A stretch of DNA of 64,000 nt from a virus, in the IMG/VR virus record IMGVR_UViG_3300036834_000189, positions 52,207-116,206 of that record; one strand, given 5' to 3'. The notes under the pieces were generated by a model that saw only the letters and a list, made by a program, of their open reading frames with translations, made no database searches and was not told where the DNA came from. A program made the translations under genes and the position numbers. The first letter of the stretch is position 1, and every line of letters begins with the position of its first letter. Positions 16,447 through 38,819 of the stretch are shown here, piece by piece.

Positions 16447-19400
16447 ATGAGCGACACCAAAATCACCAATCTGCAGGAAGTCGCACGGACCGAGAAGCCG
16501 ATCTCGCGGATTCTCGACAGCGTCGTGGAGCACAGCGCGCGCAAGCCGCAGCCGTTCTCGGCGTACGACTTTGATCGTCTCAACCGGCTCTTTCCGCCGG
16601 TTGTCGAGAAGGCGGTACGCGACGCCGGCATCCCGACTCTGGCGCAAGACCAGACGGTCATGGGCACGTATGGCTGGGCGGCGCAGGATGTCATCTACTC
16701 GGCGTTCGCCGAGGGCGTGGTCTTCCTCGGCTACAGCTATCTCGCGACCTTGGCGCAGCGCGCCGAGTACCGCGTCGTCACCGAGACGATCGCGGGCGAG
16801 ATGACCCGCGAATGGATCGAACTCAAAGCCGCCAGCGGCGACGACAGCAAGCACGACCGGATCAAGGCGATCGAGGACCGGCTCGACGCGCTCGACGCCC
16901 GCAACTGCTTTCGCAAATGCGCCGAGAGCGACGGGTTCTTCGGCCGCGGGCATCTGTACCTCGACACCGGGATGACCGACGATTCCGAGGAACTGCTCAG
17001 CGATCTCGGCAGCGGCCGGTCGGTGATGAGCCAGACCAAGATCGGCCCCGACAAGAACCAGAAGCTGATCGGACTGCAGCCGGTCGAGGCGACCTGGGCG
17101 TACCCGACGCATTACGAGTCGGTGGACCCGCTCAAGCGCGATTGGTACAGCCCGACGACCTGGTACATCATGAGCCGCGAAATCCACAAATCGCGATTAT
17201 TGACATTTGTCAGCCGTGAAGTCCCCGACATCCTCAAGCCCGCCTACGCGTTTGGCGGATTGTCAATGTCGCAAATGCTCAAGCCCTACGTAGACAATTG
17301 GTTGAGGACCCGCCAGTCAGTCTCTGATCTGATCCAGAATTTCAGCCACAACGTGCTGCACACCAACATGGACGCCACGACCGCGGTCGGCGGCGACAAC
17401 ATGTTCGCCCGCGTGGCGCTGTTCAACAACATCAAGAACAACCAGGGCACCATCCTGGTCGACAAGGACGCCGAGGACTGGAGCAATGTCAGCGTGCCGC
17501 TCGGCGGGCTCGATCACCTGCAGGCGCAGGCGCAGGAGCACATGGCGGCGATCGCCCGCATCCCGCTGGTCAAACTGCTCGGCATCCAGCCGGCCGGTCT
17601 CAACGCCTCGTCGGAGGGCGAGCTGATCTCGTTCGAGGACTGGATCGCCGCGTTGCAGGAACTGCTGTTCCGCAAGCCGCTGACCTCGGTCATCGACTTT
17701 GTCCAGTTGTCGATGTGGGGCTTTATCGACCACGACATCACGTTCGACTTCGTGCCGCTGCGCCAGCTCAAGCCGCAAGAGCAGGCAGAATTGAGTTCGA
17801 CGGTCGCGCAGACCCGTGAACTCTACATGAACATGGGCGCGGTCGACGGCCAAGAGGTCCGTGAGGCGCTGGCGCAGGACGACGATGCGCCGTTCGCCGG
17901 TCTCGATTTGTCGCAGCCGCTGCCGCAGCCGCCGATGCCGCCGGGTGGAATGGGGGGACCCGGCGGCCCGGGTGGTCCTCCAGGCGGCGCGAAGCCCAAT
18001 GGCGCGGGCGGCCCGCCGATGCAGCCGCCGATGGGGGATACAAGGTCGCCCGCGCTGCCGTTTCCGACCGGTGCGCGCGATGTTGGGATAGCACGCGGGT
18101 TCGCGCACGACGCCGCGCTGCTGTCGCATGCGAGTGTCGCGTTCGAGCACCCGGCGCAAGGGGTCGACCACTGTGCGCAGTGCGGGCATTACCTCGGCGT
18201 CGACGACTGCGAGCTGGTGCGCCCGCCGGTCAAGCCGGCGGATTGGTGCGACCGGTTCACCGATGCCGAGGTCGAGGACGATGTCGAGGACGACGACTTC
18301 GCCGAGGACGCCGACTGGGATCCGCAGGAGCATCCGCAAAGCGCGAAGACCGGCCAGTTTATCGCGAAGGGCACCAGTGAAGGCGGTGGCGCGATCCCGG
18401 AGCCGCCGCAGATCCAGTCGCAGCACGCCGCGAACATCGGCAAGCAGAAGCACCTGGACGCATTGCACGCGCACGCCAAGGCGGGCGACTGGAGCAAGGT
18501 CGCGGCGTACCCGACACCGGGCACCAACACCTACGCGAAGAAGGTCCAGAAGTACAAGGCCGACCTGCTGAAGCTCGCGCCCAAAGGCGAGGGCGCGCCC
18601 AAAAGCGAGGAAGAAGCCGAAGCTTATAAACCCGAAGTGCCGGATTTTTACAAAAAGGATCTCGGCAAGCAGGGGTTCGGGTTTATGGGTGAGGGGTCGG
18701 GCGGCAGTCAGCTGTTCCAGGAACCAGCGACCCAGATTTCTGTGAAGGTCGAGCCCCCGGCGGCAGAGTCGGGCAACGCGACATGGTCGATCTTCGATAA
18801 AGCAGGCAAGGTAATCCAGGAGGGCGAGGCCGCTGGGCATCTGGAGTTCGCGGTTAAAAAGCACCTCGCCGCCGCCAAATCCGCTGGGCCGTCGCCCGAG
18901 CCCGCAGCCGCGCCTGAAGCCGCCAAAGTCACCTCCATGGAGGTGACCAAAACAGCCCAAGGCATGGGGTTTGAGGTAGCCGGTTACGGTGAAATGGTCA
19001 ACCCGGCCACCGGTCATGTTCTCAAGGTGGACCCCGGCGGTAAATGGACGATCAAGGAGAAGAACGGCGATCTCGAAGCAAAGGGCGACAGCTTTGCAGA
19101 ACTGAAGAGTGCCCTTGAATTTGGTGCGGTAAACGGTCCTGTCACTTGGGGATCACCAAAACTTGAAGCCGAAACCGAGGCTGCGACTAAAGAAGCCGCG
19201 TCCGTGGTCAAGCCCAAGGGCGCCAGCAAGATTTACTCGCACGAGACCGCCACGAAATGGGCCGCCGACCCGAAAGCCGTCTCCGAGCCCGCGCTTCGCT
19301 ACTCGAATGGCGACGCCACAAACGAGACCGAGACCTTGGTCATCGGTACCGGCGCCAAAAACCAGGGCAAGTGGCAGATCTGGAAGAAGGGCGAGGGGGT

Positions 19401-21318
19401 TGTCGCCAAGGGTTCTGGTCAGGACGAGCTGAACGCCGCGTTCGAGGAGTTGCACCCGCGCGGGCCGGGCGGCAAGTTCGCCAAGAAGTCCAGCGAGGTC
19501 GAGCACTGGACCGCCAGCAGCCCGATGCCGGACGAGCTGAACGGTGTCGCGTTCAAGCCGTTCAACGCGCCCACCACTACCGCGGGCTGGAACAAGGTCG
19601 CCGGGCAGAAGCCCGATCTCGTCGAGCCGGATATAGAGGTTCCTCCCGGCAAGCATGTGAGCGCCGGGCTATTGATCCAGGAACCGGATGGTCGCGTGTG
19701 GCTGGTCAAGCCGAAGGGTGGTTATGGCGATTACAACTACACATACCCGAAGGGGACGCAGGACCCGGGACTGTCGTTGCAGGCGACCGCGATCAAGGAA
19801 GCGTTCGAGGAGTCGGGTCTGCACGGCGAGATCACCGGGCTGGCGGGTGACTACCTCGGCGAGACCAGCATCACGCGGTATTATCTCGCCAAGCGGATCG
19901 GCGGCTCGCCGACCCAGTTCGAAAAGGAGAGCGAAGGCGTCAGTCTGGTCCCGCCCGAGAAGCTGCACGACTTCCTGAACAAGGAGCGCGACCGGAATAT
20001 TGCGACCAACCACTTCATCGCGCCGCCCAAGCCGGTCATCGGCAAGACGGTCGATACCGGCGCGATGAAAAAGGTCGGCGGGAAACTCGGCAGCAACCCC
20101 GGAGCGCAGTACGAGGACGACGAGGGCAACAAGTATTACGCCAAGTTCCTCAAGTCGCCCGATCACGCCAAGAACGAGTTGCTGGCTGCCGCGCTCTACA
20201 ATGCGGTGGGCTCGCCGACCCTCAACTATCACCCCGACAAAGACCCCAAGAATGTCGTCACCGACTGGCAGGAGCCCGACAAGAAAGGCGGCGTGAAGAA
20301 TTTCACCCCGGACGAGAAGCGCGAGGCGCAGAAGCATTTCGCAACGCATGCGTGGCTGGCGAACTGGGATGCCGCTGGTTTGGGCGGCGACAATCAGCAG
20401 ATCATCGGCGGCAAGCCGATGACCGTCGATGTCGGCGGTGCATTACTCTACCGCGCGCAGGGCGATTCCAAAGGGTCGGCGTTCAACACCGCGGCGAGCG
20501 AGTGGGAGACGATGCGCGACGCCAAGACCAACAAGGATTCGGCGGATCTGTTTGGCGGCATGACGCCCGCGATGCTGAAAAACTCGGCCGACCGGCTGGG
20601 ACAGATCACCGATTCGCAGATCCGCAACCTGGTCGACGTGCACGGGCCGGGCTCGACAGTCGAGAAATCGGCGCTCGCCGCGATGCTGATCAAGCGCAAG
20701 GAGAACATCCTGGCCAAGGCGGTCCCGCCCGCGCCGCCAAAGCCCGCCGAGCCGCAGCATCATCCCACCGGTTATGCGCTGCCGACCACGAATTCTCCCG
20801 GCGCCGCGATGCCGGCGCTGAACGACGCGGCGCCGCCGACGGCATCGGGGGTGCAGCGCACCGCGATCAAGAATTACACCGATCACCATTACCGTGAGAT
20901 CAACCAGCAGCTGCGCTATGGACTGGTCAGCGAGCACGGCCAATACGGCAAGACCATCTCTCAGCTGACCGACTGGCTCGACAAGGCGGACTTCCCCGAG
21001 GACCGCGTCTTGACCCGCGGCGTCGATGGTTCATACGCCGAATTTCTCAAGGGGCTGCACATCGGCTCCGAGTTTCGCGATGTCGGGTTTGTATCGATGA
21101 GCGTCAAGAAAGACCCGCCGATGGGGTCTCATACGATCATGGAAGTGCGGGTGCCCAAGGGTTCGAAAGCCGCCTCGGCGCATCATATCAGCGATCACCA
21201 TACCGAGTACGAAGTCATCGGCCAGCGCGGCAGCTACCTGCGTCTGGTTGGCAAGATGCCGAATGGCCGATTGATTGTTGACTTGTTGCCGCCAACATAT
21301 GAACCGAAGAAGAAGTGA
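16447..21318 (+). CDS. Portal protein (DUF1073-type) fused to HiPIP-like, Nudix, kinase-like and ADP-ribosyltransferase domains
   Basis: N-terminal FLGYSYLATLAQRAEYR...IPLVKLLGIQPAGLNAS; CAQCGHY..C..WC; YPKG..KEAFEESGL; GSNPG..YYAK..NE..LANWD..VDVGG; YREIN..RGV..FVSMS..EYEV. Confidence 0.85.
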   Translation: MSDTKITNLQEVARTEKPISRILDSVVEHSARKPQPFSAYDFDRLNRLFPPVVEKAVRDAGIPTLAQDQTVMGTYGWAAQDVIYSAFAEGVVFLGYSYLATLAQRAEYRVVTETIAGEMTREWIELKAASGDDSKHDRIKAIEDRLDALDARNCFRKCAESDGFFGRGHLYLDTGMTDDSEELLSDLGSGRSVMSQTKIGPDKNQKLIGLQPVEATWAYPTHYESVDPLKRDWYSPTTWYIMSREIHKSRLLTFVSREVPDILKPAYAFGGLSMSQMLKPYVDNWLRTRQSVSDLIQNFSHNVLHTNMDATTAVGGDNMFARVALFNNIKNNQGTILVDKDAEDWSNVSVPLGGLDHLQAQAQEHMAAIARIPLVKLLGIQPAGLNASSEGELISFEDWIAALQELLFRKPLTSVIDFVQLSMWGFIDHDITFDFVPLRQLKPQEQAELSSTVAQTRELYMNMGAVDGQEVREALAQDDDAPFAGLDLSQPLPQPPMPPGGMGGPGGPGGPPGGAKPNGAGGPPMQPPMGDTRSPALPFPTGARDVGIARGFAHDAALLSHASVAFEHPAQGVDHCAQCGHYLGVDDCELVRPPVKPADWCDRFTDAEVEDDVEDDDFAEDADWDPQEHPQSAKTGQFIAKGTSEGGGAIPEPPQIQSQHAANIGKQKHLDALHAHAKAGDWSKVAAYPTPGTNTYAKKVQKYKADLLKLAPKGEGAPKSEEEAEAYKPEVPDFYKKDLGKQGFGFMGEGSGGSQLFQEPATQISVKVEPPAAESGNATWSIFDKAGKVIQEGEAAGHLEFAVKKHLAAAKSAGPSPEPAAAPEAAKVTSMEVTKTAQGMGFEVAGYGEMVNPATGHVLKVDPGGKWTIKEKNGDLEAKGDSFAELKSALEFGAVNGPVTWGSPKLEAETEAATKEAASVVKPKGASKIYSHETATKWAADPKAVSEPALRYSNGDATNETETLVIGTGAKNQGKWQIWKKGEGVVAKGSGQDELNAAFEELHPRGPGGKFAKKSSEVEHWTASSPMPDELNGVAFKPFNAPTTTAGWNKVAGQKPDLVEPDIEVPPGKHVSAGLLIQEPDGRVWLVKPKGGYGDYNYTYPKGTQDPGLSLQATAIKEAFEESGLHGEITGLAGDYLGETSITRYYLAKRIGGSPTQFEKESEGVSLVPPEKLHDFLNKERDRNIATNHFIAPPKPVIGKTVDTGAMKKVGGKLGSNPGAQYEDDEGNKYYAKFLKSPDHAKNELLAAALYNAVGSPTLNYHPDKDPKNVVTDWQEPDKKGGVKNFTPDEKREAQKHFATHAWLANWDAAGLGGDNQQIIGGKPMTVDVGGALLYRAQGDSKGSAFNTAASEWETMRDAKTNKDSADLFGGMTPAMLKNSADRLGQITDSQIRNLVDVHGPGSTVEKSALAAMLIKRKENILAKAVPPAPPKPAEPQHHPTGYALPTTNSPGAAMPALNDAAPPTASGVQRTAIKNYTDHHYREINQQLRYGLVSEHGQYGKTISQLTDWLDKADFPEDRVLTRGVDGSYAEFLKGLHIGSEFRDVGFVSMSVKKDPPMGSHTIMEVRVPKGSKAASAHHISDHHTEYEVIGQRGSYLRLVGKMPNGRLIVDLLPPTYEPKKK

Positions 21319-21529: not shown

Positions 21530-21769
21530 ATGTCGGATCTCGACAAATTGTGGGTGATGTTTCATCGCTACGAACCGATGCTTGCCGAGCAGTACGCCGC
21601 GTGGCTGGCGCAGCAAACGCCGCCCGCCGAGCCGGCGTCCGAGGAAGCCGAGCCGGCGCCCGATGAAGAGCCGGGCGGCGAAGAGCCGGGAACCGGGCAT
21701 CTCACCCGGCCTACCGGCGACCCGCGGACCACGACTCGACACACCACGACGACCACGACTCGCACGTGA
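21530..21769 (+). CDS. Hypothetical low-complexity protein
   Basis: GGAGG RBS. Confidence 0.55.
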   Translation: MSDLDKLWVMFHRYEPMLAEQYAAWLAQQTPPAEPASEEAEPAPDEEPGGEEPGTGHLTRPTGDPRTTTRHTTTTTTRT

Positions 21770-21779
21770 TGGCGAAACG

Positions 21780-23042
21780 ATGCCCGCCGATCAGAACGGT
21801 GCGCAGTTCCTCGGGCAGTTGAAGACCGCCGTCCGCGGACTTCTGGCGTGGCTGAGCGAGGAAGCGGACGAGCCCGAGCACCCGTCAGCACAAGCCGGGA
21901 TGATGCCCAGGGGGCGTCTGCCTAGCCCTGGGGGCGGTGCCGGGGGCGATGCCGGGGGCGATGCCGGCAGCCCGACTACGGCGAGCCCAGCCGGCCCGCA
22001 GGGCACCACGGGGGGTGGTGTAAAGGGCGGCGGCACCAAGGACACCTCGCTCAACGCACCAGCCTCGCTCGAAGCGGGATCGTTCCGCGAGCCGCACCTG
22101 ACCGAAGCCGGCAACCCGCGTGTGCCGCTGCAGGACTGCGGCGACGCGACAAACAATGGCGGTTGGGGCTCGCCGCCGATCAAGCCGCGTCCCTCGGTCG
22201 ACGCGCGCAGCGGCGGGCGTACCGGCTGGCGTTCACCGTCGTTTGATCTGGCGCCGTCTCAGTCTCGGTTTACGGCTCCAGGACGGCGGAACAATGTCGC
22301 GACCGATCCGCCGGTCTCGGAGGCGCAGCGCCGCGCGATGGGTGCGGCGAAGAGCGGGCGGTCCAATCTCGGGATCCCGCAATCGGTTGGCAAGGAGTTC
22401 ATCGAGGCCGACCCCGGCGGCAAATTGCCGGCGACCACTGACCAGCGCGGCGCGATCTCGACCGATCCGATCCACGCGCAAGCATTGCGCAGCGCCCCGG
22501 TGAGCAGCCAGGTGCTCAACCCGCCGGTGGCGACACCGCGCGCCGCTGATCAGCCCGAGCTGCGCGAGGCGCACCAGGGGTCGACGGTCGACCCGGCCAA
22601 AGCCTACCATCTGAACCAGTTCAAGCAGAAAGAGCACCTATACAATTCGATGAAGGGTCAGCAGGTGCCGACGGTGTTTGCCGACAAGCATTTGAAGGAT
22701 CTCGACAACCTGCAAAAACAAATGCTGGAGCATGCGCAGCACGGCGGGTTCGCGCACGGCCAGCAGTCGCCGGGGGCCGAGGGCGACCATGGGATGACCG
22801 GCACGGCGGGAACCGCCAACTGGCAGTCGCCGATGTTCCCGTCGACTGACGCCGGCACTCCCGAGGGTGCGCGCAAAGCGGCGCAGACCCGCGCCGGTGG
22901 TGCCGGTGGTGCAGCTCTGCGCTCGCAGATGGGGAAGGGGCCATCTCCCCTAAAGCCGTATAAGCCTAGCGGTGCCGAGTCGCGAGCCAAAAGGCGCGAA
23001 GCCGGATCGCCGTACCGCCCGCCGACTGGTGGTTGGTCGTAA
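21780..23042 (+). CDS. Putative internal head (poly)protein
   Basis: Gly/Pro-rich modules bounded by xxD sites; VSEAQRRAM..LGIPQSVGKEF module; WQSPMFPSTDAGTPEGARKAA. Confidence 0.6.
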   Translation: MPADQNGAQFLGQLKTAVRGLLAWLSEEADEPEHPSAQAGMMPRGRLPSPGGGAGGDAGGDAGSPTTASPAGPQGTTGGGVKGGGTKDTSLNAPASLEAGSFREPHLTEAGNPRVPLQDCGDATNNGGWGSPPIKPRPSVDARSGGRTGWRSPSFDLAPSQSRFTAPGRRNNVATDPPVSEAQRRAMGAAKSGRSNLGIPQSVGKEFIEADPGGKLPATTDQRGAISTDPIHAQALRSAPVSSQVLNPPVATPRAADQPELREAHQGSTVDPAKAYHLNQFKQKEHLYNSMKGQQVPTVFADKHLKDLDNLQKQMLEHAQHGGFAHGQQSPGAEGDHGMTGTAGTANWQSPMFPSTDAGTPEGARKAAQTRAGGAGGAALRSQMGKGPSPLKPYKPSGAESRAKRREAGSPYRPPTGGWS

Positions 23043-23055
23043 GAGGGTACTGAAC

Positions 23056-23946
23056 ATGTGGTCTTCACCGCGGTTCCCGGTCATGGCATTGGACGCCGTG
23101 AAACACGATCCGCATACCGGCCAATTCACCAGCGGTGGCGGTGGTGGTGCGCCCACTGGCAAGTTTACCGCATCCCATCTCGATCAGCTGCGCAGTCAGA
23201 TGAGCGGGATCAAGCGCATCGATCCGTCATCGCCGTCTTACAAAAAGATGACCGCGCATCTCGACTCATTGAACCCGGCGCAGTTGAAACAGATACACGA
23301 AGCCAAGATCCCGTTCTTGAGCAATCTGGCTCATAACCGAATCATCCGCGCCGCCAATAAGCCCCCAGCGACCGACGCCGGCACCAGCGAGGGCGCGCGC
23401 AAAGCCGCCGCGACTCGTGCGTCTGGGGGAGGCGGTGGTGATCCCAAAGCCGAGCACCGAACCGCTCACGCCTATCACAAGGCCCAGGGCATCGCCGGGA
23501 AAGAAGGTCATGGAGCCGCGGCGGCGCTGCATCAGCACGCGTTTCATATGCATACGAACATAAACCCGATGGTGCGCAGCAAGGCTGGAGAGGCGTCGCA
23601 AAAGGCTTGGGCAGCTTCTGAGAAGCTCGGTTACAAGCCCCCAGCGACCGACGCCGGCACTAGCGAAGGGGCGCGCAAAGCGGCTGCGACGCGCGCAGCA
23701 GGAGGCGCCGCTCCCGCCAAAAAAATAGCTGAATCTGGAGGCCAGAAGTGGATTTCCTCTGGTGGTGGGGCATATAAACCAATCGGTAAGTTTTCTGTTC
23801 ACAAATACGAAGAAAATAGTGAACCAAGTTTACATAATATGGTTCACCATACTAATAGTGAGCAGGAGGCTAATAAGAAAGCTAGTAATCTTTGGCAGAA
23901 GACTGGTATTCCACATATTACTAGACATACTCAATATTTACGATGA
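23056..23946 (+). CDS. Putative internal head protein with repeated TDAGTSEGARKAAATR modules
   Basis: MWSSPRFPVMALDAVKHDPHTGQFTS leader; DNA repeat near 23360 and 23635; AT-rich last module. Confidence 0.65.
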   Translation: MWSSPRFPVMALDAVKHDPHTGQFTSGGGGGAPTGKFTASHLDQLRSQMSGIKRIDPSSPSYKKMTAHLDSLNPAQLKQIHEAKIPFLSNLAHNRIIRAANKPPATDAGTSEGARKAAATRASGGGGGDPKAEHRTAHAYHKAQGIAGKEGHGAAAALHQHAFHMHTNINPMVRSKAGEASQKAWAASEKLGYKPPATDAGTSEGARKAAATRAAGGAAPAKKIAESGGQKWISSGGGAYKPIGKFSVHKYEENSEPSLHNMVHHTNSEQEANKKASNLWQKTGIPHITRHTQYLR

Positions 23947-24150: not shown

Positions 24151-25839
24151 ATGAGGACGCTTAGATCCGGCATGTTCGAGCATCTGGCGCTTGATCAAGC
24201 GACTGTGCGCAGCCGCAGTGAAGACGGGCATCTGCACGTCGGCCAGTCGAACATCTCGAAAGCCACGGTCAACCCCTATTGGGGCCGCGAGATACCAGGC
24301 TACGACGAACTCGGTCTGGACCCCGACAAGAAGTACCTGCTGTGGCGGCACCCCGGCGAGCTGGCGAAGGGGGCCAAGACCTTCAACAACCTGCCGATCA
24401 TGGCGGACCACGTCCCGATCAGCGCCGACAAGCACCGCCCCGATCTGGTGATCGGCTCGACCGGGACCGACGCGCAGTTCGCCGATCCCTACCTCAGAAA
24501 CTCGCTGGTGTTCTGGACCAAGCCGGCGATCGACGCGATCGAGAGCAACGAGCAAAAAGAGCTTAGCGCCGCTTATCACTATGTCCCGGTGATGACCCCG
24601 GGTGTCACGCCCGACGGTCAGCGCTACGACGGCATCATGACCCAGCTACGCGGCAATCACGTTGCTTTGGTGGAAGACGGACGCGCTGGGAAGGATGTCG
24701 TCGTTGGCGATTCTGCTTTTGACCCGACCGCTGCAAGCGGCATTGCAAGGAGTACCCAAATGGCAAAACTAGCGCCTGCTGGCTTGGTAGCGCGCAGTGC
24801 TCTGTTCACCTACCTGTCGCCGCGGCTGGCGGCCGACCAGTCGATCGATCTCAACAGTCTGGTCGCCGGGATCACCTCGAAGAACTATGCGGCGCGGCGC
24901 GGTGCATTGAAAGACAAGGTAACCGCCGCGGCGCGTGGCAAGCTCGCGATGGACGCCGATCTGCGGGATCTGGCGAACCTGCTCGACGCGTTGTCGCCCG
25001 ACGCCGAAAGCGCCGACCAGCTGACGACCGCGCCGTCAGCCGGTCCGCCGATGGGCGCCGTGGGGGGCGGCGCTGCCCCACCGATGGACGCCGAGCCACA
25101 CGACACTCTGGCGAAGATCAAGGCGTTTCTCGAAGAGCAGGGGGTCAGCCCCGAGATCATCAACAATCTCGACGCCTTCGCCGCCAGCGCCGGGCAGCCG
25201 CCAAATGGCGCTGGCGGCAACGGACCAGCGCCCCCGCCGCCGCCTCCGGGACCCGGCGACCGGCGCACCGCGGGCGATCAGGGTCCGGCGAATGCCGGCA
25301 TGTTCGCCAAGGAGAAGACCGGTGCGGACGAGGGCATGGAGACGCGCGGCGAGGAGGGCGAGGGGGAGCCGAGCGAGCTGTCCATCGACCAGGAGGAAGC
25401 CTGTGACGAGGACGAGACCGAGGAAGAGCGGAAAAAGCGAGAGGCGGAGGACGAAGTGATACCCAACAAGCAGGACGACGTGGATGGCGTGGTCACCAAG
25501 AGCGCCATGGACCGGGCGATCAAGATCGCCCAGGACCGCGCGATCCGCAATCAGCGGGCGGTGCGCGACGCCGAGCGTTTTGTGCGCCCGTGGGTCGGCG
25601 ATCTCGCGATGGACGCGATGCACCCGGCCGATATTTACCGGACCGCATTGAAGTCGCTCGGGGTGCGCGGTGCCGACACAATGCACAACGACGCGCTGCG
25701 CCCGGTGCTCGAAGCGCAGCCGCGACCGTCGCGGACGACGGGCCGGGTTGGTGTGCCGCGCGATATGGCGGCCGACGCCAAGCCGCAGCAGAGCTTTTTG
25801 GAGCGGTTTCCGGAAGTGAAGGGCGTTCGGCTGCAGTAA
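24151..25839 (+). CDS. DUF2213 prohead protease/scaffold protein (start 24151 or 24172)
   Basis: [35 protein letters not shown], acidic scaffold tail. Confidence 0.88.
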
Positions 25840-25938
25840 GAGGTGAGTGAGCCCTACAGTAGGCTGTAGGTTGTAAGGCTCATTCAAAAAAGCCCGCGGA
25901 GCCCCGCTAGAGCCCCTTAGAGCCGGGGAGCTGTCGCA

Positions 25939-26130
25939 CTACCGGCCGACCCGCTTCACGCGCTCAGGCGGGCACGGGCGCGGCTCTGTCGGGGGGTTCA
26001 TACCGCTCAACGCGGCCTCTATCTCGCGAATGACGCGGTCGATCTCCGGGAGCCGCATGCCGAGCGTGGGGCGCGCGCGTTCCTGCTGCCAGGCGCGGAG
26101 TCGGTCTCTGAGTCGTGGCTCGCTCACCAT
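25939..26130 (-). CDS. Small hypothetical protein starting inside the last unit of array 2
   Basis: GAGGAGGGG and ATG supplied by array spacers. Confidence 0.35.
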   Translation of the reverse strand: MVSEPRLRDRLRAWQQERARPTLGMRLPEIDRVIREIEAALSGMNPPTEPRPCPPERVKRVGR

Positions 26131-26305
26131 CGTTGGTGCTCTCCCCTCCTCTATGGCTCGCTCTCTCGCTTTGGTTCAACTCTCAGTCAGTGGCTCGCTC
26201 CCTTTTCCTGGTGCTCTCTAGCCTCATGGCTCGCGCCCGTTGGTTCAACTCAGCGGATATGGCTCGCTCGTCGCCCTTGGTTCGACTCAAGTCCCTTGGC
26301 TCGCG
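26116..26305 (-). ncRNA. TIGR-like dual-repeat guide array 2 (5 units)
   Basis: Minus strand: AGCCA-spacer-(AGTYGAACCA/AGAGCACCA)-spacer-(A/C)GCG x5; same repeats as array 1, different spacers. Confidence 0.85.
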
Positions 26306-26447
26306 CTGACCATCTGAGTTTATCTCTCAGCAAACAAGTAAAAAGTCTCCCGAGACTCGCACTAAGATGGTCGCGGCTTGGGAAGCTCGTAGAGCAAAGT
26401 TCGGACCATCTGGTCGTAAACCCAAGTCATCAAAGGAGGATTAGGAA

Positions 26448-27419
26448 ATGGCCCTCGGGTTTCAAGCGCAAGTATTCCCCCAGCCAGCACCGGGAGTCGA
26501 AGGCGATTTTTGTGACCACAACCCGCGCGCCACGGTGGATGCCGGTCCCGGCGGATTAGTGGCCGGGGTCAACGGCGTGACCGTCGGTCATTTCGCGTGG
26601 CTCGACGCATCGCTGATCGACCCCAACAATGCGCCGACCGTCGTGCAGTCCTTTGCCACACCGGGCGCCCTCAACGTGGCGGGGTTTGTCCACCGCGAGC
26701 AGCAGGGCCTGATCACCAACTGGCTGGGTGGCGCGTCGATGCAGGTGATGGGCGGGTTCCCGGTCACGCTGATGAACGAAGGCGGGTTCTTTGTCCGCAA
26801 CAACGGCGTGACCTATTGCCAGCTCGGGCAGAAGGCGTTTGCCCGCACGAGCGACGGCGCGGTGCTGTTTGGCGCCGCCGGGTCGAGTCAGGGCGCGGTG
26901 ACCGGCGCCACCGGCGCGATCGCCGCTGGTCCCGCCGTAGCGCTGACTGGCGGGATTCAAGGCAATGTACTCACTGCTACTGCGGTCGCCACGGGTCCGG
27001 TCGTCCCCGGCACCACGATCGCCGGCACCGGCATCCCGGCCGGCACTCAGATCATCTCGCAGCTCAGCGGGACGCCGGGCGGGGTCGGCACCTACGCTGT
27101 CACACCTGTCGCCGAACTCAATGTCGCCCCCGGCACGGCTATTACCGGCACCTACGGCATCCTCACGGTCACCGTTGCGCCAACCACCGGGGCTTTTGGT
27201 GTCGGCACTGTGCTCACCGGCACCGGGGTGGCGGCGGGCACGGTCATTACAGCGCTCGGCACCGGCACTGGCGGGCTCGGCACGTACTACGTCAACAACA
27301 ACACGGTCGTCGCCTCGACCGCCCTCACCGGCGGCGGTGCGGTCGAGACCAAATGGTACGCGACCAGCGCCGGGGCACCCGGCGAGATCGTCAAAATGTC
27401 GTCATGGCCGCTGGGCTGA
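26448..27419 (+). CDS. Head decoration/cement protein with Gly/Thr-rich insertion
   Basis: PAPGVEGDF..NPR, GFVHREQQGLI, ETKWY; directly upstream of MCP. Confidence 0.8.
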   Translation: MALGFQAQVFPQPAPGVEGDFCDHNPRATVDAGPGGLVAGVNGVTVGHFAWLDASLIDPNNAPTVVQSFATPGALNVAGFVHREQQGLITNWLGGASMQVMGGFPVTLMNEGGFFVRNNGVTYCQLGQKAFARTSDGAVLFGAAGSSQGAVTGATGAIAAGPAVALTGGIQGNVLTATAVATGPVVPGTTIAGTGIPAGTQIISQLSGTPGGVGTYAVTPVAELNVAPGTAITGTYGILTVTVAPTTGAFGVGTVLTGTGVAAGTVITALGTGTGGLGTYYVNNNTVVASTALTGGGAVETKWYATSAGAPGEIVKMSSWPLG

Positions 27420-27443: not shown

Positions 27444-28604
27444 ATGGAAAATTTCAGCAGTGCACGGGCCGCCTGGCAGTCCGACCGCGCCGAGTGGGAA
27501 GCAAAGGGTGTCGTTCTCCCTGGGGTGACCAGCTATCTGCCCACCGAGTGGAAGAACAACAGCAAGCTCGCGATGGACGAGATGGACCGGATGGCGCAGG
27601 ACATGATGCCGTACGGCTACGGTCACAACTCGATGGCGATGGATGCGCCGCCGCTGCTCTACACTCAGCCGAACTCGGCGGTGCCGGCGCTCCTCACCAC
27701 GACAATCGACCCCGATGTCTTCCGCATCCTGTTCAGCCCGAACAAGGCGGCGGAAGCGCTCGACGGCGAGGTCAAGCGCGGCACCTGGCTCGACGATGTG
27801 ATCTTCTTCCCGGTGGTCGAGGCGACCGGCGAAGTATCGTCATACGGCGATTACAGTGAACAAGGCAATGCCGGGGTCAATGTCAACTGGCCCTCCAGAC
27901 AAAACTACCTCTTTCAAGTCATCAAGGAATATGGTGAAAGAGAAGTCGAGCGCGGTGGCCTTGCGAGAATTAACTGGGTCAGCGAGATCGACCGCGCCGC
28001 GGCATTGACGATTGCCAAGTTTCTCAACATGGCGTATCTCTTTGGAGTCGCCGGCCTGCAGAATTTCGGGCTCGCCAATGATCCGAACCTGTCGGCGGCG
28101 CTGACCCCGGGACCCAAGATCGCGGGCGGCACGCGGTGGGTCATCAACGGTGTGGTCAACGGCAGCGCCAACGAGATCTATCTCGACATCGAATCGCTGT
28201 ACTACCAGCTGGTGGTCCAGACCGGTGGTCTGGTCGAGCTGGACTCGGATTTGAAGCTCCTGATGTCGCCCGGCTCCTCGGTGGCGATGACCGCGACCAA
28301 CTCGTACGGCGTCAATGTCGGCGACCTGATCACCAAGAACTTCCCCAATCTGGAGGTCATCACGATCCCGCAATACGCGGCGCGGTCCAGTGTCATGCCG
28401 CAGGGGGTCGCGGCCGGCGAGTTTGTCCAGATGATCACGATGGCGGTCGAAGGGCAGAAGACGGCGTTTCCGGCCTACTCAGAAAAAATGCGAGCGCATC
28501 CAGTAATTCGGGCACGCTCTTCTTTCAGCCAAAAAGTTTCCGCCGGGACCTGGGGTACCGTCATGCGCATGCCAGCTGCGGTCTCCAGCATGGTTGGCGT
28601 TTGA
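27444..28604 (+). CDS. Major capsid protein (DUF2184-type)
   Basis: MAMDA, EVKRGTW, VEATGEVSSYGDYS, NWPSRQNY, GLANDPNL, GTWGTV. Confidence 0.9.
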   Translation: MENFSSARAAWQSDRAEWEAKGVVLPGVTSYLPTEWKNNSKLAMDEMDRMAQDMMPYGYGHNSMAMDAPPLLYTQPNSAVPALLTTTIDPDVFRILFSPNKAAEALDGEVKRGTWLDDVIFFPVVEATGEVSSYGDYSEQGNAGVNVNWPSRQNYLFQVIKEYGEREVERGGLARINWVSEIDRAAALTIAKFLNMAYLFGVAGLQNFGLANDPNLSAALTPGPKIAGGTRWVINGVVNGSANEIYLDIESLYYQLVVQTGGLVELDSDLKLLMSPGSSVAMTATNSYGVNVGDLITKNFPNLEVITIPQYAARSSVMPQGVAAGEFVQMITMAVEGQKTAFPAYSEKMRAHPVIRARSSFSQKVSAGTWGTVMRMPAAVSSMVGV

Positions 28605-36669: not shown

Positions 36670-37530
36670 ATGTCGGCTGTTCCCGGTTACCCGCCGACCG
36701 CTCCCGCCGCGTCGCGGATCGTCGTGTTGCCGCCGATCTATCCGGCGCCGGTCCGCGATTTTCGCATTTTTGACTTTACTGCGCCGATCAAGCCGGCGAC
36801 CAAGGCCGCGATCACCGCGGCATCGTGGAGCTGCACGGTCGACGCGCAGAGCGAGGTCGTCGACCCTACTCCCTCCGGTCGCCTGATCGGAGCGCCGAGC
36901 TTTGACACCTTCACCACGACACAGCTGATCGGCGACTGTGTCGATAACTGTCTCTACGCGCTGAGCGCGCAGGTCACCGTGACCGACGGCCGGATCCTCG
37001 TGCTCAACGGATCGCTCTACTGCTCCGGTCTCCCTGCTGTCGCGATCTTGCCGGACGGCGCGCTGGTGTTCGACTACGACGAGTTCGTTATCAAGTTTCC
37101 CGAGTTCATGCCGCTGTCCGAAGAGCTGTTGGCCGGGTATTGGGCGCAGGCCGGCATGCTCTTTCGCAACGACGCGACATCATCGGAGCAGGACCCGGTG
37201 ATCCGCCGCGAGATCCTCGATCTGCTGACCGCGCATTGCGCCGTGCTGTTTGCTCCGCCGCCCGTAGGACGCGGTGGCGGGGGGTCAAGCGCGCTCGGCG
37301 GGGTGTTGACCTCGAAATCGGTCAATGGCGTCTCGGTGGGCTCCTCCGGGGTTTTTCCGGGGATGAGCGGTACGCAGGCGTGGTACATGTTGAGTAGTTA
37401 TGGTCAGAAGGCGTGGATGATGACGCGAGCGTATCGTACCTTTCATTACCTTCCCGGTCCTCAGAGATTTCCCAGTTCAAACAACCCGATCTGGCCATTT
37501 GGGCCTTTTAATCCGTACTATTGGCATTGA
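36670..37530 (+). CDS. Head-tail adaptor (DUF4054-like) with N-terminal extra domain
   Basis: FDYDEF..FPEF, LLTAH, AWY..SSYG..W..TRAYRTFHY. Confidence 0.75.
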   Translation: MSAVPGYPPTAPAASRIVVLPPIYPAPVRDFRIFDFTAPIKPATKAAITAASWSCTVDAQSEVVDPTPSGRLIGAPSFDTFTTTQLIGDCVDNCLYALSAQVTVTDGRILVLNGSLYCSGLPAVAILPDGALVFDYDEFVIKFPEFMPLSEELLAGYWAQAGMLFRNDATSSEQDPVIRREILDLLTAHCAVLFAPPPVGRGGGGSSALGGVLTSKSVNGVSVGSSGVFPGMSGTQAWYMLSSYGQKAWMMTRAYRTFHYLPGPQRFPSSNNPIWPFGPFNPYYWH

Positions 37531-37613
37531 CGGATTGGTTTCGCATCACCTGTGCGCGCGGCGATCGATGCACGTGCTTCCAGGAGTCCTTTCTCATCTG
37601 CCCGGATACAGTG

Positions 37614-38054
37614 ATGAGATTTGAATGGCGCTCTCCGCGGTTCCCGGTGATGGACGCCGAGTTCAAGGAGCATGAGCACGCGCGCAACGAAAGCGGTCAG
37701 TTCACCAGTGGTGGCGGCGGTGGTGGTGCATCGGAGAAAACGCCGCATCGGCGCGATTCCAAGGCTGTTCTGCACATGACTGATCCGTTGGGCTGGCACC
37801 ACATGAAAGACGCCGACGGTAATGTCTGGCGGCACTCCGAGAAGCATCACGCACTGGTCGCCAGCAACAAAGCGATGCCCGATCAGCCGGGCGGGGGCTG
37901 GCTCAAGGCTCCCGAGATCAAAGCCAAGCGGATGATCCCGAGAGGCATGCCGGGTGGCGGAAAAAACCCGCCGCCGGCATCTGCTGCGGTCTGGAAGAAG
38001 CTCGAAGCACAGGGGCTGGTCAAGCCGGCGCGTACCGGGTGGGAAAAGAAGTGA
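37614..38054 (+). CDS. Putative internal head protein
   Basis: WRSPRFPVMDAEFKEHEHARNESGQFTSGGGG leader shared with the 23056 ORF. Confidence 0.6.
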   Translation: MRFEWRSPRFPVMDAEFKEHEHARNESGQFTSGGGGGGASEKTPHRRDSKAVLHMTDPLGWHHMKDADGNVWRHSEKHHALVASNKAMPDQPGGGWLKAPEIKAKRMIPRGMPGGGKNPPPASAAVWKKLEAQGLVKPARTGWEKK

Positions 38055-38057
38055 CGC

Positions 38058-38819
38058 ATGCAGTCGGCACGCGACCGTTTTGCCCGTGCCCGCCGCGCCG
38101 AGGTGCGTTACGGCATCCAACTGCGCCAGATCGCGCGGCAGATCAATGCCTTTGTGCACGGGATCTTCCACCCGCAGGACCCGGCCACCGCGTCGTACCT
38201 CGAACGCACATTGCACGACTACGAGGACACGATCCGACCGTGGGCCGAATCAGTCGGTCGGCGCATGCTGGTCGATGTCAGCCAACGCGACTTCACGGCG
38301 TGGCTTGAGCACGGCAAAGCGATTGGCAGAGCCTTACGGGGGATTGTCGAGACCGCGCCGATCGGCAATGAGTTCCGCCAGTTGCAGGACACCCAGGTCG
38401 ACCTGATCACCAGCATTCCGCGCGACGCCGCTCAACGGGTGCACGACCTCAGTCTGGAGCATCTGCTCCAAGGTCGGCGGTGGGAAGAAGTCGCGCGCGA
38501 CATTCTCGACCAGGGCGATGTCAGCCGGTCAAAAGCCAATCTGATCGCGCGGACCGAGACCTCGCGCGCCGCTGGCCAGTTCACGATGGTCCGTGCGATG
38601 CACATGGGCAGCGAGGGGTACATCTGGCGGACCGTGCGCGATGCCGATGTTCGGCTCGAACACCGCAAGCTGGAGGGCACGTTTCAGCGTTGGGACAGCC
38701 CGCCGGTCGCCGGTTATGGGCGCGGGCACTCGGAGCAGCGGTATCATCCAGGGGGCGGGCCGAATTGCCGCTGTATGAGCGAGCCGGTAATGCCCGACGA
38801 GCCGCAAAAGGGCTATTAA
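38058..38819 (+). CDS. MuF/SPP1 gp7-like minor head protein (no C-terminal toxin domain)
   Basis: LIARTE, YIWRTVRDADVRLEH, HPGGGPNCRC. Confidence 0.88.
   Translation: MQSARDRFARARRAEVRYGIQLRQIARQINAFVHGIFHPQDPATASYLERTLHDYEDTIRPWAESVGRRMLVDVSQRDFTAWLEHGKAIGRALRGIVETAPIGNEFRQLQDTQVDLITSIPRDAAQRVHDLSLEHLLQGRRWEEVARDILDQGDVSRSKANLIARTETSRAAGQFTMVRAMHMGSEGYIWRTVRDADVRLEHRKLEGTFQRWDSPPVAGYGRGHSEQRYHPGGGPNCRCMSEPVMPDEPQKGY

Follow-up and report, generated by a model that had tools for sequence, protein, structure and literature searches.

A phage portal gene extended by a HiPIP-like domain and three enzyme domains, and its possible role as a polyprotein for head-loaded effectors

Why should the portal protein of a phage be continued, in the same reading frame, by a train of enzyme domains, and what might become of that train in the maturing head? 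The question is raised by a gene at the start of the head module in a 64,000-nucleotide stretch of DNA (the window) that corresponds to bases 52207-116206 of the IMG/VR virus record IMGVR_UViG_3300036834_000189. The record is a linear sequence of 116,206 bp from an uncultured virus, with an estimated completeness of 87% and a GC content of about 63%. An initial reading of the letters (the original prediction) had described one continuous open reading frame (ORF) of about 1620 residues, and the frame indeed runs for 1623 residues from its ATG without a stop; the identical protein is on record from two contigs. It comprises, in this order, a PF06381 portal, a Pro/Gly linker, a four-cysteine (Cys4) domain resembling high-potential iron-sulphur proteins (HiPIP), a helical module, repeats, a Nudix domain, a kinase and an ADP-ribosyltransferase (ART) of the R-S-ExE type (Table 1). 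We consider it rather probable that the gene encodes a portal polyprotein which would be cut by the phage's own head protease, its cargo then being packaged and injected.

The DUF1073-type portal of the original prediction was recovered with Pfam, where Phage_portal_3 (PF06381, the former DUF1073) matches residues 97-456 (E-value 1.4e-70; 238 bits for a cut-off of 33.8) and is covered from position 2 to 354 of its 357 positions, and with PHROGs (phrog_146, E 4e-93). The equivalog cut-off of TIGR01555 in NCBIfam was missed (82 vs 196 bits). The portal part also matches the solved dodecameric portals gp19 of E217 and Pa193 (E 1e-33) over their residues 212-505. No second portal of the PF06381, PF04860, PF05133 or PF05136 type was found in the 116-kb record, and the fusion gene is the only recognisable portal gene of this phage. 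In E217, the gp19 model covers residues 97-528 out of 765, with the C-terminal barrel pointing into the head (PDB 8fvh and 9b41 for E217 and Pa193), while the Pa193 portal has no density for residues 529-765. Because the homology ends at the equivalent of E217 residue 505, and the E217/Pa193 chain beyond about 505-528 projects into the capsid, the linker and all of the cargo should start inside the capsid, in line with the orientation that had been proposed.

The last third of the protein carries the three enzyme domains. The Nudix assignment was borne out by Pfam (PF00293; E 1.6e-10 within the whole protein; E 4.5e-12 and 46.5 bits, cut-off 21.1, for the domain alone) and by a match to an Ap4A hydrolase in the PDB (E 4e-5). 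Its box reads G-x5-L-x7-K-E-A-F-E-E-S-G-L, thus departing from the consensus G-x5-E-x7-R-E-U-x-E-E-x-G-U at two positions (E7 to L, R15 to K) and keeping the metal-binding E-x-x-E-E core; the K-E-A-x-E-E-S-G core is conserved in 16 relatives. The predicted R-S-E ART likewise stands: ADPrib_exo_Tox (PF03496) is matched with an E-value of 1.1e-13 in the whole protein, or 6.9e-16 and 58.6 bits (cut-off 23.4) for the domain alone, the PDB search returned Lmo0066 (E 2e-9), and R1524, S1550-M-S and E1587-Y-E1589 are conserved in nine aligned relatives. Since the R-S-ExE residues of the ART and the E-x-x-E-E core of the Nudix domain are conserved in relatives, the enzymes look active. By analogy with T4 Alt, the ExE signature points to arginine-specific protein ADP-ribosylation, and the Nudix domain could clear ADP-ribose, other NAD-derived molecules or nucleotide signals.

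The kinase domain matched no model in Pfam, PHROGs or NCBIfam, and a single-sequence search of the PDB returned nothing; a profile search of the PDB gave a chance match to a beta-propeller and a weak one to LepB (E 1.2), which was made sense of by the later fold comparison. The domain is encoded in 64 IMG/VR loci at 32-55% identity. Invariant in 47 copies are the G of G-S-N-P-G, K1233, E1244, H1301-A-W-L-A-N-W-D1308, N1316 and D1328-x-G-G, a pattern that matches an ATP-binding Lys, the Glu of helix C, a catalytic loop and an Asp that binds metal. An AlphaFold2 model (mean predicted local distance difference test, pLDDT, 96.2; predicted template modelling score, pTM, 0.91) had Helicobacter pylori CtkA as its top Foldseek match (E 4e-7). 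HipA_C matches below threshold occur in 10 of the 47 relatives (PF07804 / PF20613; best E 0.0013) and not in the domain of the window. Judged from the model, the domain has the atypical kinase fold of the CtkA/HipA/LepB group together with its catalytic residues, and it is a member of no curated family. The earlier description as "PI3/4K- or HipA-like" was therefore right at the level of the fold, CtkA/HipA being the nearer side; membership of the PI3/4-kinases was considered and was not favoured over CtkA/HipA. Host proteins would be the substrates of such a kinase, as they are for T7 gp0.7.

The stretch between portal and Nudix domain had been taken for a Pro/Gly linker. A linker is present at residues 506-551, and the remainder holds a HiPIP-like domain (module A), a helical module (module B) and repeats, as delimited by an HMMER scan of residues 541-1050; a structure model covered residues 541-660. 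Module A has more than 100 relatives, many of which are stand-alone proteins of about 55-135 residues (HMMER), and its four cysteines and Trp600 are invariant across 59 aligned sequences. The core of the model has a pLDDT of 94-96 and all 18 of its 18 Foldseek matches in the PDB are HiPIPs, with a best E-value of only 0.038; the best fold matches are the HiPIP of R. marinus and PioC (TM-score 0.76 on target, root-mean-square deviation 1.5 over 48 columns). In NCBIfam, the domain matched the iron oxidase Iro, which we take to be a HiPIP, with an E-value of 1e-6 and 29 bits, below the cut-off of 100; no match was found in Pfam, including the HiPIP family PF01355. Taken together, sequence and model suggest that module A is HiPIP-like and probably binds a [4Fe-4S] cluster. 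The short HiPIPs of the PioC/Iro type (PDB 6xyv, 3h31) share its small fold and its C-x2-C-x8-C-x12-C spacing with a W-C pair, whereas here the domain is internal, has no twin-arginine translocation (Tat) signal, lies in a cytoplasmic or virion setting and scores below the family cut-offs. The literature search found no paper on HiPIPs in phage capsids. The same module also follows the portal in three relatives bearing other cargo (P0008, P0023, P0026), precedes the kinase in portal-less proteins (L004, L016) and occurs in short ORFs of some loci, one of them directly after the portal-cargo gene in L033, L035 and L062. Module B and the repeats had no match in Pfam, PHROGs or NCBIfam, and the middle region had no relative in IMG/VR (searched with residues 552-1038) and no usable match in the ESM Atlas (residues 541-1050).

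Module A is bracketed by two Asp-Ala motifs, F-A-H-D555↓A556 and F-A-E-D621↓A622 (arrows mark the predicted cuts), both present as originally read. A crude gene set (126 ORFs, 36,018 residues) contains 11 matches to the pattern [LMFIV]A.DA, eight of them within the head module, to which 11% of the residues belong; the corresponding binomial P of 2.5e-6 is optimistic, the pattern having been widened after the head proteins had been seen. The density is 2.0 per 1000 residues in head proteins vs 0.09 in the six-frame background, about 22-fold higher. In the capsid protein, D67↓A68 aligns with D64↓S65 of S-A-M-D-S in the Pa193/E217 capsid protein; the E217 capsid model begins at residue 66, and its authors raise the possibility that residues 1-65 are cleaved off. 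Among relatives that share the protease and capsid families, the N-terminus of the capsid protein keeps L-A-M-D-A, and x-A-x-D-A is found in scaffold tails as well as ahead of cargo tags (described below). A portal of the Pbunavirus type (gp21 of Pseudomonas phage Nello, L068 6368-8665) carries V-A-M-D↓S at residues 69-73, which fits the absence of the first 93 residues of the Pa193 portal from both the map and mass spectrometry coupled to liquid chromatography (LC-MS). Release at the two Asp sites, as had been suggested, thus gains from the enrichment in head proteins, the match at the capsid N-terminus and the position of such sites before tags, and cleavage itself is predicted on these grounds. 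As far as titles and abstracts tell, none of the papers found to name DUF2213, the family of this phage's protease, concerns a phage head protease. Cuts at D555 and D621 would yield a portal of residues 1-555 (61 kDa), an acidic HiPIP-like protein of 66 residues (7.2 kDa), which is within the size range of the stand-alone homologues, and a chain of 1002 residues (107 kDa). Since no further sites were seen, the three enzymes are likely to remain joined.

Site 2 leads directly into a recurrent element. A motif H-P-R-x3-G-[KQ]-F, which we term the HPR tag, recurs at the starts of modules in cargo proteins. From 70 distinct instances the consensus is D(-8) A(-7) x [FW](-5) x E(-3) x x H-P-R x3 G [KQ] F x x G x G, with D(-8) and A(-7) as the most frequent residues. 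Site 2 (D621↓A622) and the degenerate tag that follows it (tag 1) stand in exact register with this consensus. Tag 1 aligns with the N-terminal HPR tag of P0003, and the portal-less proteins P0003 and P0019 begin about 30 residues ahead of the same tag. A second tag at residues 1003-1011 (L-H-P-R-G-P-G-G-K-F from residue 1002) ends the third repeat and is not preceded by an Asp site. The same cargo modules are also found on stand-alone proteins that start with the tag.

Portal-cargo fusions are not confined to this record. A search for relatives, limited to proteins of 892-2841 residues and with cargo counted from precomputed Pfam annotations, returned 73 metagenomic proteins, 57 of which consist of PF06381 and a variable C-terminal part. 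The cargo of these 57 is an ART (PF03496) in 20, a type IB topoisomerase in 12, a Nudix domain in eight and a Zeta toxin, in some cases with AAA_33, in six; PF18763, PF18760, GNAT, EndoU and RelA_SpoT are found in the rest. The kinase is present in 14 of the 57, with Nudix and kinase in either order, and the order portal-Nudix-kinase is repeated in several independent IMG/VR contigs from different samples. About 17 of the 64 kinase loci are portal fusions and the remainder encode portal-less proteins of 500 to more than 4200 residues; among portal-less relatives, P0003 (992 residues) is 52-58% identical over residues 618-1601. Two kinase-bearing proteins, one with the HiPIP-like module (L004 5248-8109) and one with the ART (L028 2-2923), also match the protease-scaffold protein of this phage, which suggests that the cargo may be carried by this protein in place of the portal. 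Hint/intein Pfam domains were rejected as cargo, the BLAST layout placing them inside the portal fold. Five relatives (P0010, P0046, P0053, P0055, P0058) have insertions of about 200-310 residues within the portal fold, with Hint/intein domains in four of the five (not P0010), and these insertions are probably inteins.

The collection of cultured phages held no record covering most of the 1623-residue protein. Its Nudix-kinase part is matched in cultured phages of about 90 kb, namely Aeromonas phage ST4 and Pseudomonas phages Jeremy, Dolphis and Touem01. In ST4 (L001 3692-8502) and Jeremy (L002 4087-9072) the kinase lies in a protein of about 1200 residues that carries the annotation ADP-ribosyltransferase, and a Nudix gene follows two genes downstream; the C-terminal ART was confirmed by Pfam in Jeremy only, not in ST4. 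As kinase, ART and a nearby Nudix gene are found in these phages too, the three enzymes travel together across lineages. The kinase region of ST4 and Jeremy is not obviously structural.

From these elements we propose the following course of events. The portal fold would assemble as the usual ring at one capsid vertex, and everything after it would hang into the interior of the procapsid, like the C-termini of the related solved portals. During head maturation the DUF2213 protease probably cuts after the Asp of the hydrophobic-A-x-D↓A motifs at D555 and D621. This would free the mature portal, the HiPIP-like mini-protein and the 107-kDa chain, which is led by a degenerate version of the widespread HPR tag and brings the Nudix hydrolase, the CtkA/HipA-like kinase and the arginine-type ART. 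The head would trap at most 12 copies of each, which would leave it with the DNA via portal and tail and act in the new host ahead of any phage gene expression. Several points weigh against this proposal, besides the optimism of the binomial P given above. With a linear record that is 87% complete, a second portal is possible. Twelve extensions of 1068 residues may hinder portal assembly. The linker is GC-rich and of low complexity, with a run of six G at 17952-17957 just past the portal fold, and slippage there could conceivably give a truncated product, a bare portal, the +1 frame closing at 18091; programmed frameshifting at this run was considered and no support for it was found. Finally, the two sites are the only ones found in the protein, none lying between the Nudix, kinase and ART domains or before tag 2, and processing may be more limited than we suppose or use unrecognised signals.

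If processing were absent altogether, the cargo would stay covalently on the portal and never be released or injected, acting in the head (for example in DNA retention or as a plug) or late in the producer cell, its presence in the capsid being incidental. We give this a modest chance of being right. The 237-residue portal extension of the Pbunavirus phages has no recognisable cut site or tag before it and is merely invisible in the maps, the portal-cargo protein offers only two candidate sites, and the portal is a late protein, so that its enzymes would be present in the producer cell as well. On the other hand, NAD- and ATP-dependent enzymes would be without substrates in a DNA-filled head, the Asp motifs bracket the HiPIP module at 66 residues, near the size of most of its stand-alone homologues, and the same modules ride on portal-less tagged proteins.

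In a different reading, the chain would be a polymorphic toxin serving competition or superinfection exclusion, as proposed for the MuF toxins of temperate phages, rather than takeover of the phage's own host. The cargo of this portal family is highly swappable and includes the toxin domains Zeta toxin, EndoU, RelA_SpoT and ART, which resembles the polymorphic MuF toxins (PMC5576092). We nevertheless regard this as quite unlikely, given that the trio of kinase, ART and Nudix is kept together across unrelated lineages including the cultured phages of about 90 kb, which fits a cooperative function better, and that no immunity gene is evident among the neighbouring ORFs, which had no family matches, although no search was aimed at one. 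It might also be asked whether an error of assembly or sequencing has merged a portal gene and a separate cargo gene into the long ORF, in view of the close relative P0003, which has the cargo without the portal, and of the low-complexity linker with its G run. This is very unlikely because in-frame portal-cargo fusions recur in dozens of independent contigs from different samples; in addition, conserved modules continue in frame past the join (the HiPIP-like domain and the site-plus-tag junction), and are also found after the portal in P0008, P0023 and P0026. We thus retain the processed and injected portal polyprotein as our preferred reading.

Other genes considered here are listed in Table 1. 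The portal-cargo ORF opens this module and is followed by two ORFs without family matches and then by the protease, decoration or minor head, and capsid genes, with a DUF3383 protein and further structural genes downstream of the capsid gene. The MuF gene had been called bare, which was confirmed, and the portal-cargo protein itself contains no MuF domain. A common N-terminal leader, S-P-R-F-P-V-M-(A-L)-D↓A, is present in the two small proteins encoded from 23053 and 37614, and in both it precedes a degenerate HPR-type tag and a Gly run; judging by these sequences they are likely to be further protease-processed head-cargo or internal proteins. The former also contains a repeated unit, P-P-A-T-D-A-G-T-S-E-G-A-R-K-A-A-A-T-R-A, that is found again towards the end of ORF 21582-23042. 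Within 37521-38819, the tagged small ORF and MuF share a reading frame, with one stop and one further codon before the ATG of MuF; this may be a chance adjacency, or may allow read-through to a tagged MuF.

Table 1. Position of the portal-cargo gene, its domains and predicted processing sites, and selected other genes in the window.
Feature	Coordinates	Strand	Residues	Basis or remark
Portal-cargo polyprotein gene	16447..21318	+	1623 in all	Unbroken ORF; frame open from 16423, first ATG 16447
Portal domain, PF06381 / TIGR01555 type	16447..17961	+	1-505	Pfam, PHROGs, solved-portal homology
Pro/Gly-rich linker	17962..18099	+	506-551	Read from translation
Predicted head-protease site 1, F-A-H-D555↓A556	18100..18114	+	552-556	Motif enriched in head proteins
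HiPIP-like Cys4 domain (module A), core	18121..18270	+	559-608	Cys 576, 579, 588, 601
Predicted head-protease site 2, F-A-E-D621↓A622	18298..18312	+	618-622	On conserved D(-8)A(-7) of junction consensus
Degenerate cargo tag 1, A-D-W-D-P-Q-E-H-P-Q-x4-G-Q-F	18310..18360	+		Fits consensus save E(-3) to P and R to Q
Helical module B	18313..18651	+	623-735	Also many small stand-alone proteins and N-termini of cargo proteins
Three weak repeats of about 60 residues	18649..19482	+	735-1012	Pairwise local alignments z 5.9 and 5.2 vs shuffles
Nudix hydrolase domain	19651..19998	+	1069-1184	Pfam NUDIX
CtkA/HipA-like atypical protein-kinase-fold domain	20029..20766	+	1195-1440	Alignment, model, Foldseek
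ADP-ribosyltransferase domain, R-S-ExE type	20845..21240	+	1467-1598	Pfam PF03496
Small protein with leader	23053..23946	+		M-A-L-D↓A site near N-terminus; degenerate tag K-H-D-P-H-T-G-Q-F
Head maturation protease (DUF2213) fused to scaffold-like C-terminus	24151..25839	+		PF09979 E 5e-45; phrog_2229 E 1e-111; Pa193 gp24 homologue; three A-x-D↓A motifs in scaffold-like tail
ORF	25921-26556			One A-x-D↓A motif
Decoration or minor head protein	26448-27419
Major capsid protein	27444..28604	+		phrog_264; Pa193/E217 capsid homologue; M-A-M-D67↓A68
Small protein just upstream of MuF	37614..38054	+		Leader S-P-R-F-P-V-M-D↓A and degenerate tag
MuF	38058-38819		253 in all	PF04233 only

More generally, we tentatively suggest, as plausible rather than probable, that phages of this head type share a modular loading code, in which a protease site (here A-x-D↓A) and an HPR...G-K-F tag of about 20 residues would allow almost any enzyme to be mounted, whether on the portal, the protease-scaffold protein or a free protein bearing the tag, and then to be freed in the capsid and injected. 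In the present phage the code would also excise a HiPIP-type protein, giving at most 12 Fe-S proteins and 12 tri-enzyme effectors per virion, and the kinase would stand for a hitherto undescribed family of HipA/CtkA-like kinases delivered by the virion. Injected proteins are prime candidates for first-strike takeover or anti-defence functions because they are active before phage gene expression, and to our knowledge only a handful have been investigated, namely T4 Alt and IPI*, the Dar proteins of P1 and the virion RNA polymerase of N4. The locus offers a case that can be put to the test, since it predicts cuts at two sites, three products whose sizes are defined, three activities of enzymes and perhaps an Fe-S cluster. 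The portal, protease and capsid families are shared with Pbunavirus phages, for whose virions mass-spectrometry data exist, and the Pseudomonas and Aeromonas phages of about 90 kb with a kinase-ART protein and a nearby Nudix gene are tractable for the enzyme trio. If the site-plus-tag junction is truly a loading signal, chosen proteins could be loaded into phage heads.

How does this arrangement compare with known systems? The nearest structural relatives are the Pbunavirus portals (gp19 of E217 and Pa193), which belong to the same family, have 765 residues of which the last 237 or so are unseen in the maps, and come from phages with homologous capsid and protease-scaffold proteins and an A-M-D↓S motif at the capsid maturation boundary. 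Their extension is a single domain, probably the InPase-type domain reported on the BcepF1 portal, without a site-plus-tag junction, whereas here about 1070 residues form at least five modules. The kinase shares with CtkA (JHP940), the kinase domain of Legionella LepB and HipA/HipT the atypical kinase fold, the ATP-binding Lys, the helix-C Glu, the catalytic Asp...Asn and the metal-binding Asp; it differs in that the identity is 10-15%, in having no antitoxin partner and in its setting within a virion cargo chain. As to the MuF polymorphic toxins (Jamet et al. 2017), the portal-cargo protein lacks their N-terminal MuF domain.

The cargo as a whole is comparable to a combination of T4 Alt (a packaged ART), T4 NudE (a Nudix hydrolase) and T7 gp0.7 (a kinase). 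In T4, internal head proteins are directed by a short N-terminal capsid-targeting sequence and cut at (L or I)-x-E sites by the gp21 protease. The resemblance to T4 Alt and these internal proteins lies in an arginine-specific ART that is packaged in the head, is cut back at a short motif by the prohead protease and enters the host together with the DNA, where it modifies host proteins (cited in PMC9503650); here the carrier would instead be the portal, the protease DUF2213 and the motif A-x-D↓A.

The closest conceptual match is to the phage polyvalent proteins defined by Iyer, Burroughs, Anand, de Souza and Aravind in 2017, who described PBECR, 2H and InPase domains fused to the portal, for instance in BcepF1 (PMC5512222). 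Polyvalent proteins link at least two unrelated effector domains to a virion protein, and here Nudix, kinase, ART and HiPIP-like domains are linked to the portal; in both cases several effector domains are joined in one polypeptide to a head protein encoded among head genes, with packaging and injection predicted. ARTs and T4-NudE-like Nudix domains fused to MuF, to the portal and to the capsid-processing peptidase were reported later (Iyer et al. 2022, PMC9503650). It was fair to remark that MuF is the usual carrier of such effectors, but portal fusions of ART and Nudix domains were already contained in these two papers; the class is known, from computation only, and the arrangement is less unusual than the original prediction implied. 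A word search found no HiPIP domain, CtkA/HipA-like kinase or HPR tag named in either paper; the kinase group that they do describe is found in Verrucomicrobia and Bacteroidetes and has no C-terminal subdomain. In their proposal a zincin peptidase within the chain effects the release; none is present here, where the phage's head protease is the candidate. Compared with these papers, what is new is the kinase family, the HiPIP module bracketed by predicted sites, and the junction of protease site and tag as the probable signal for release and loading.

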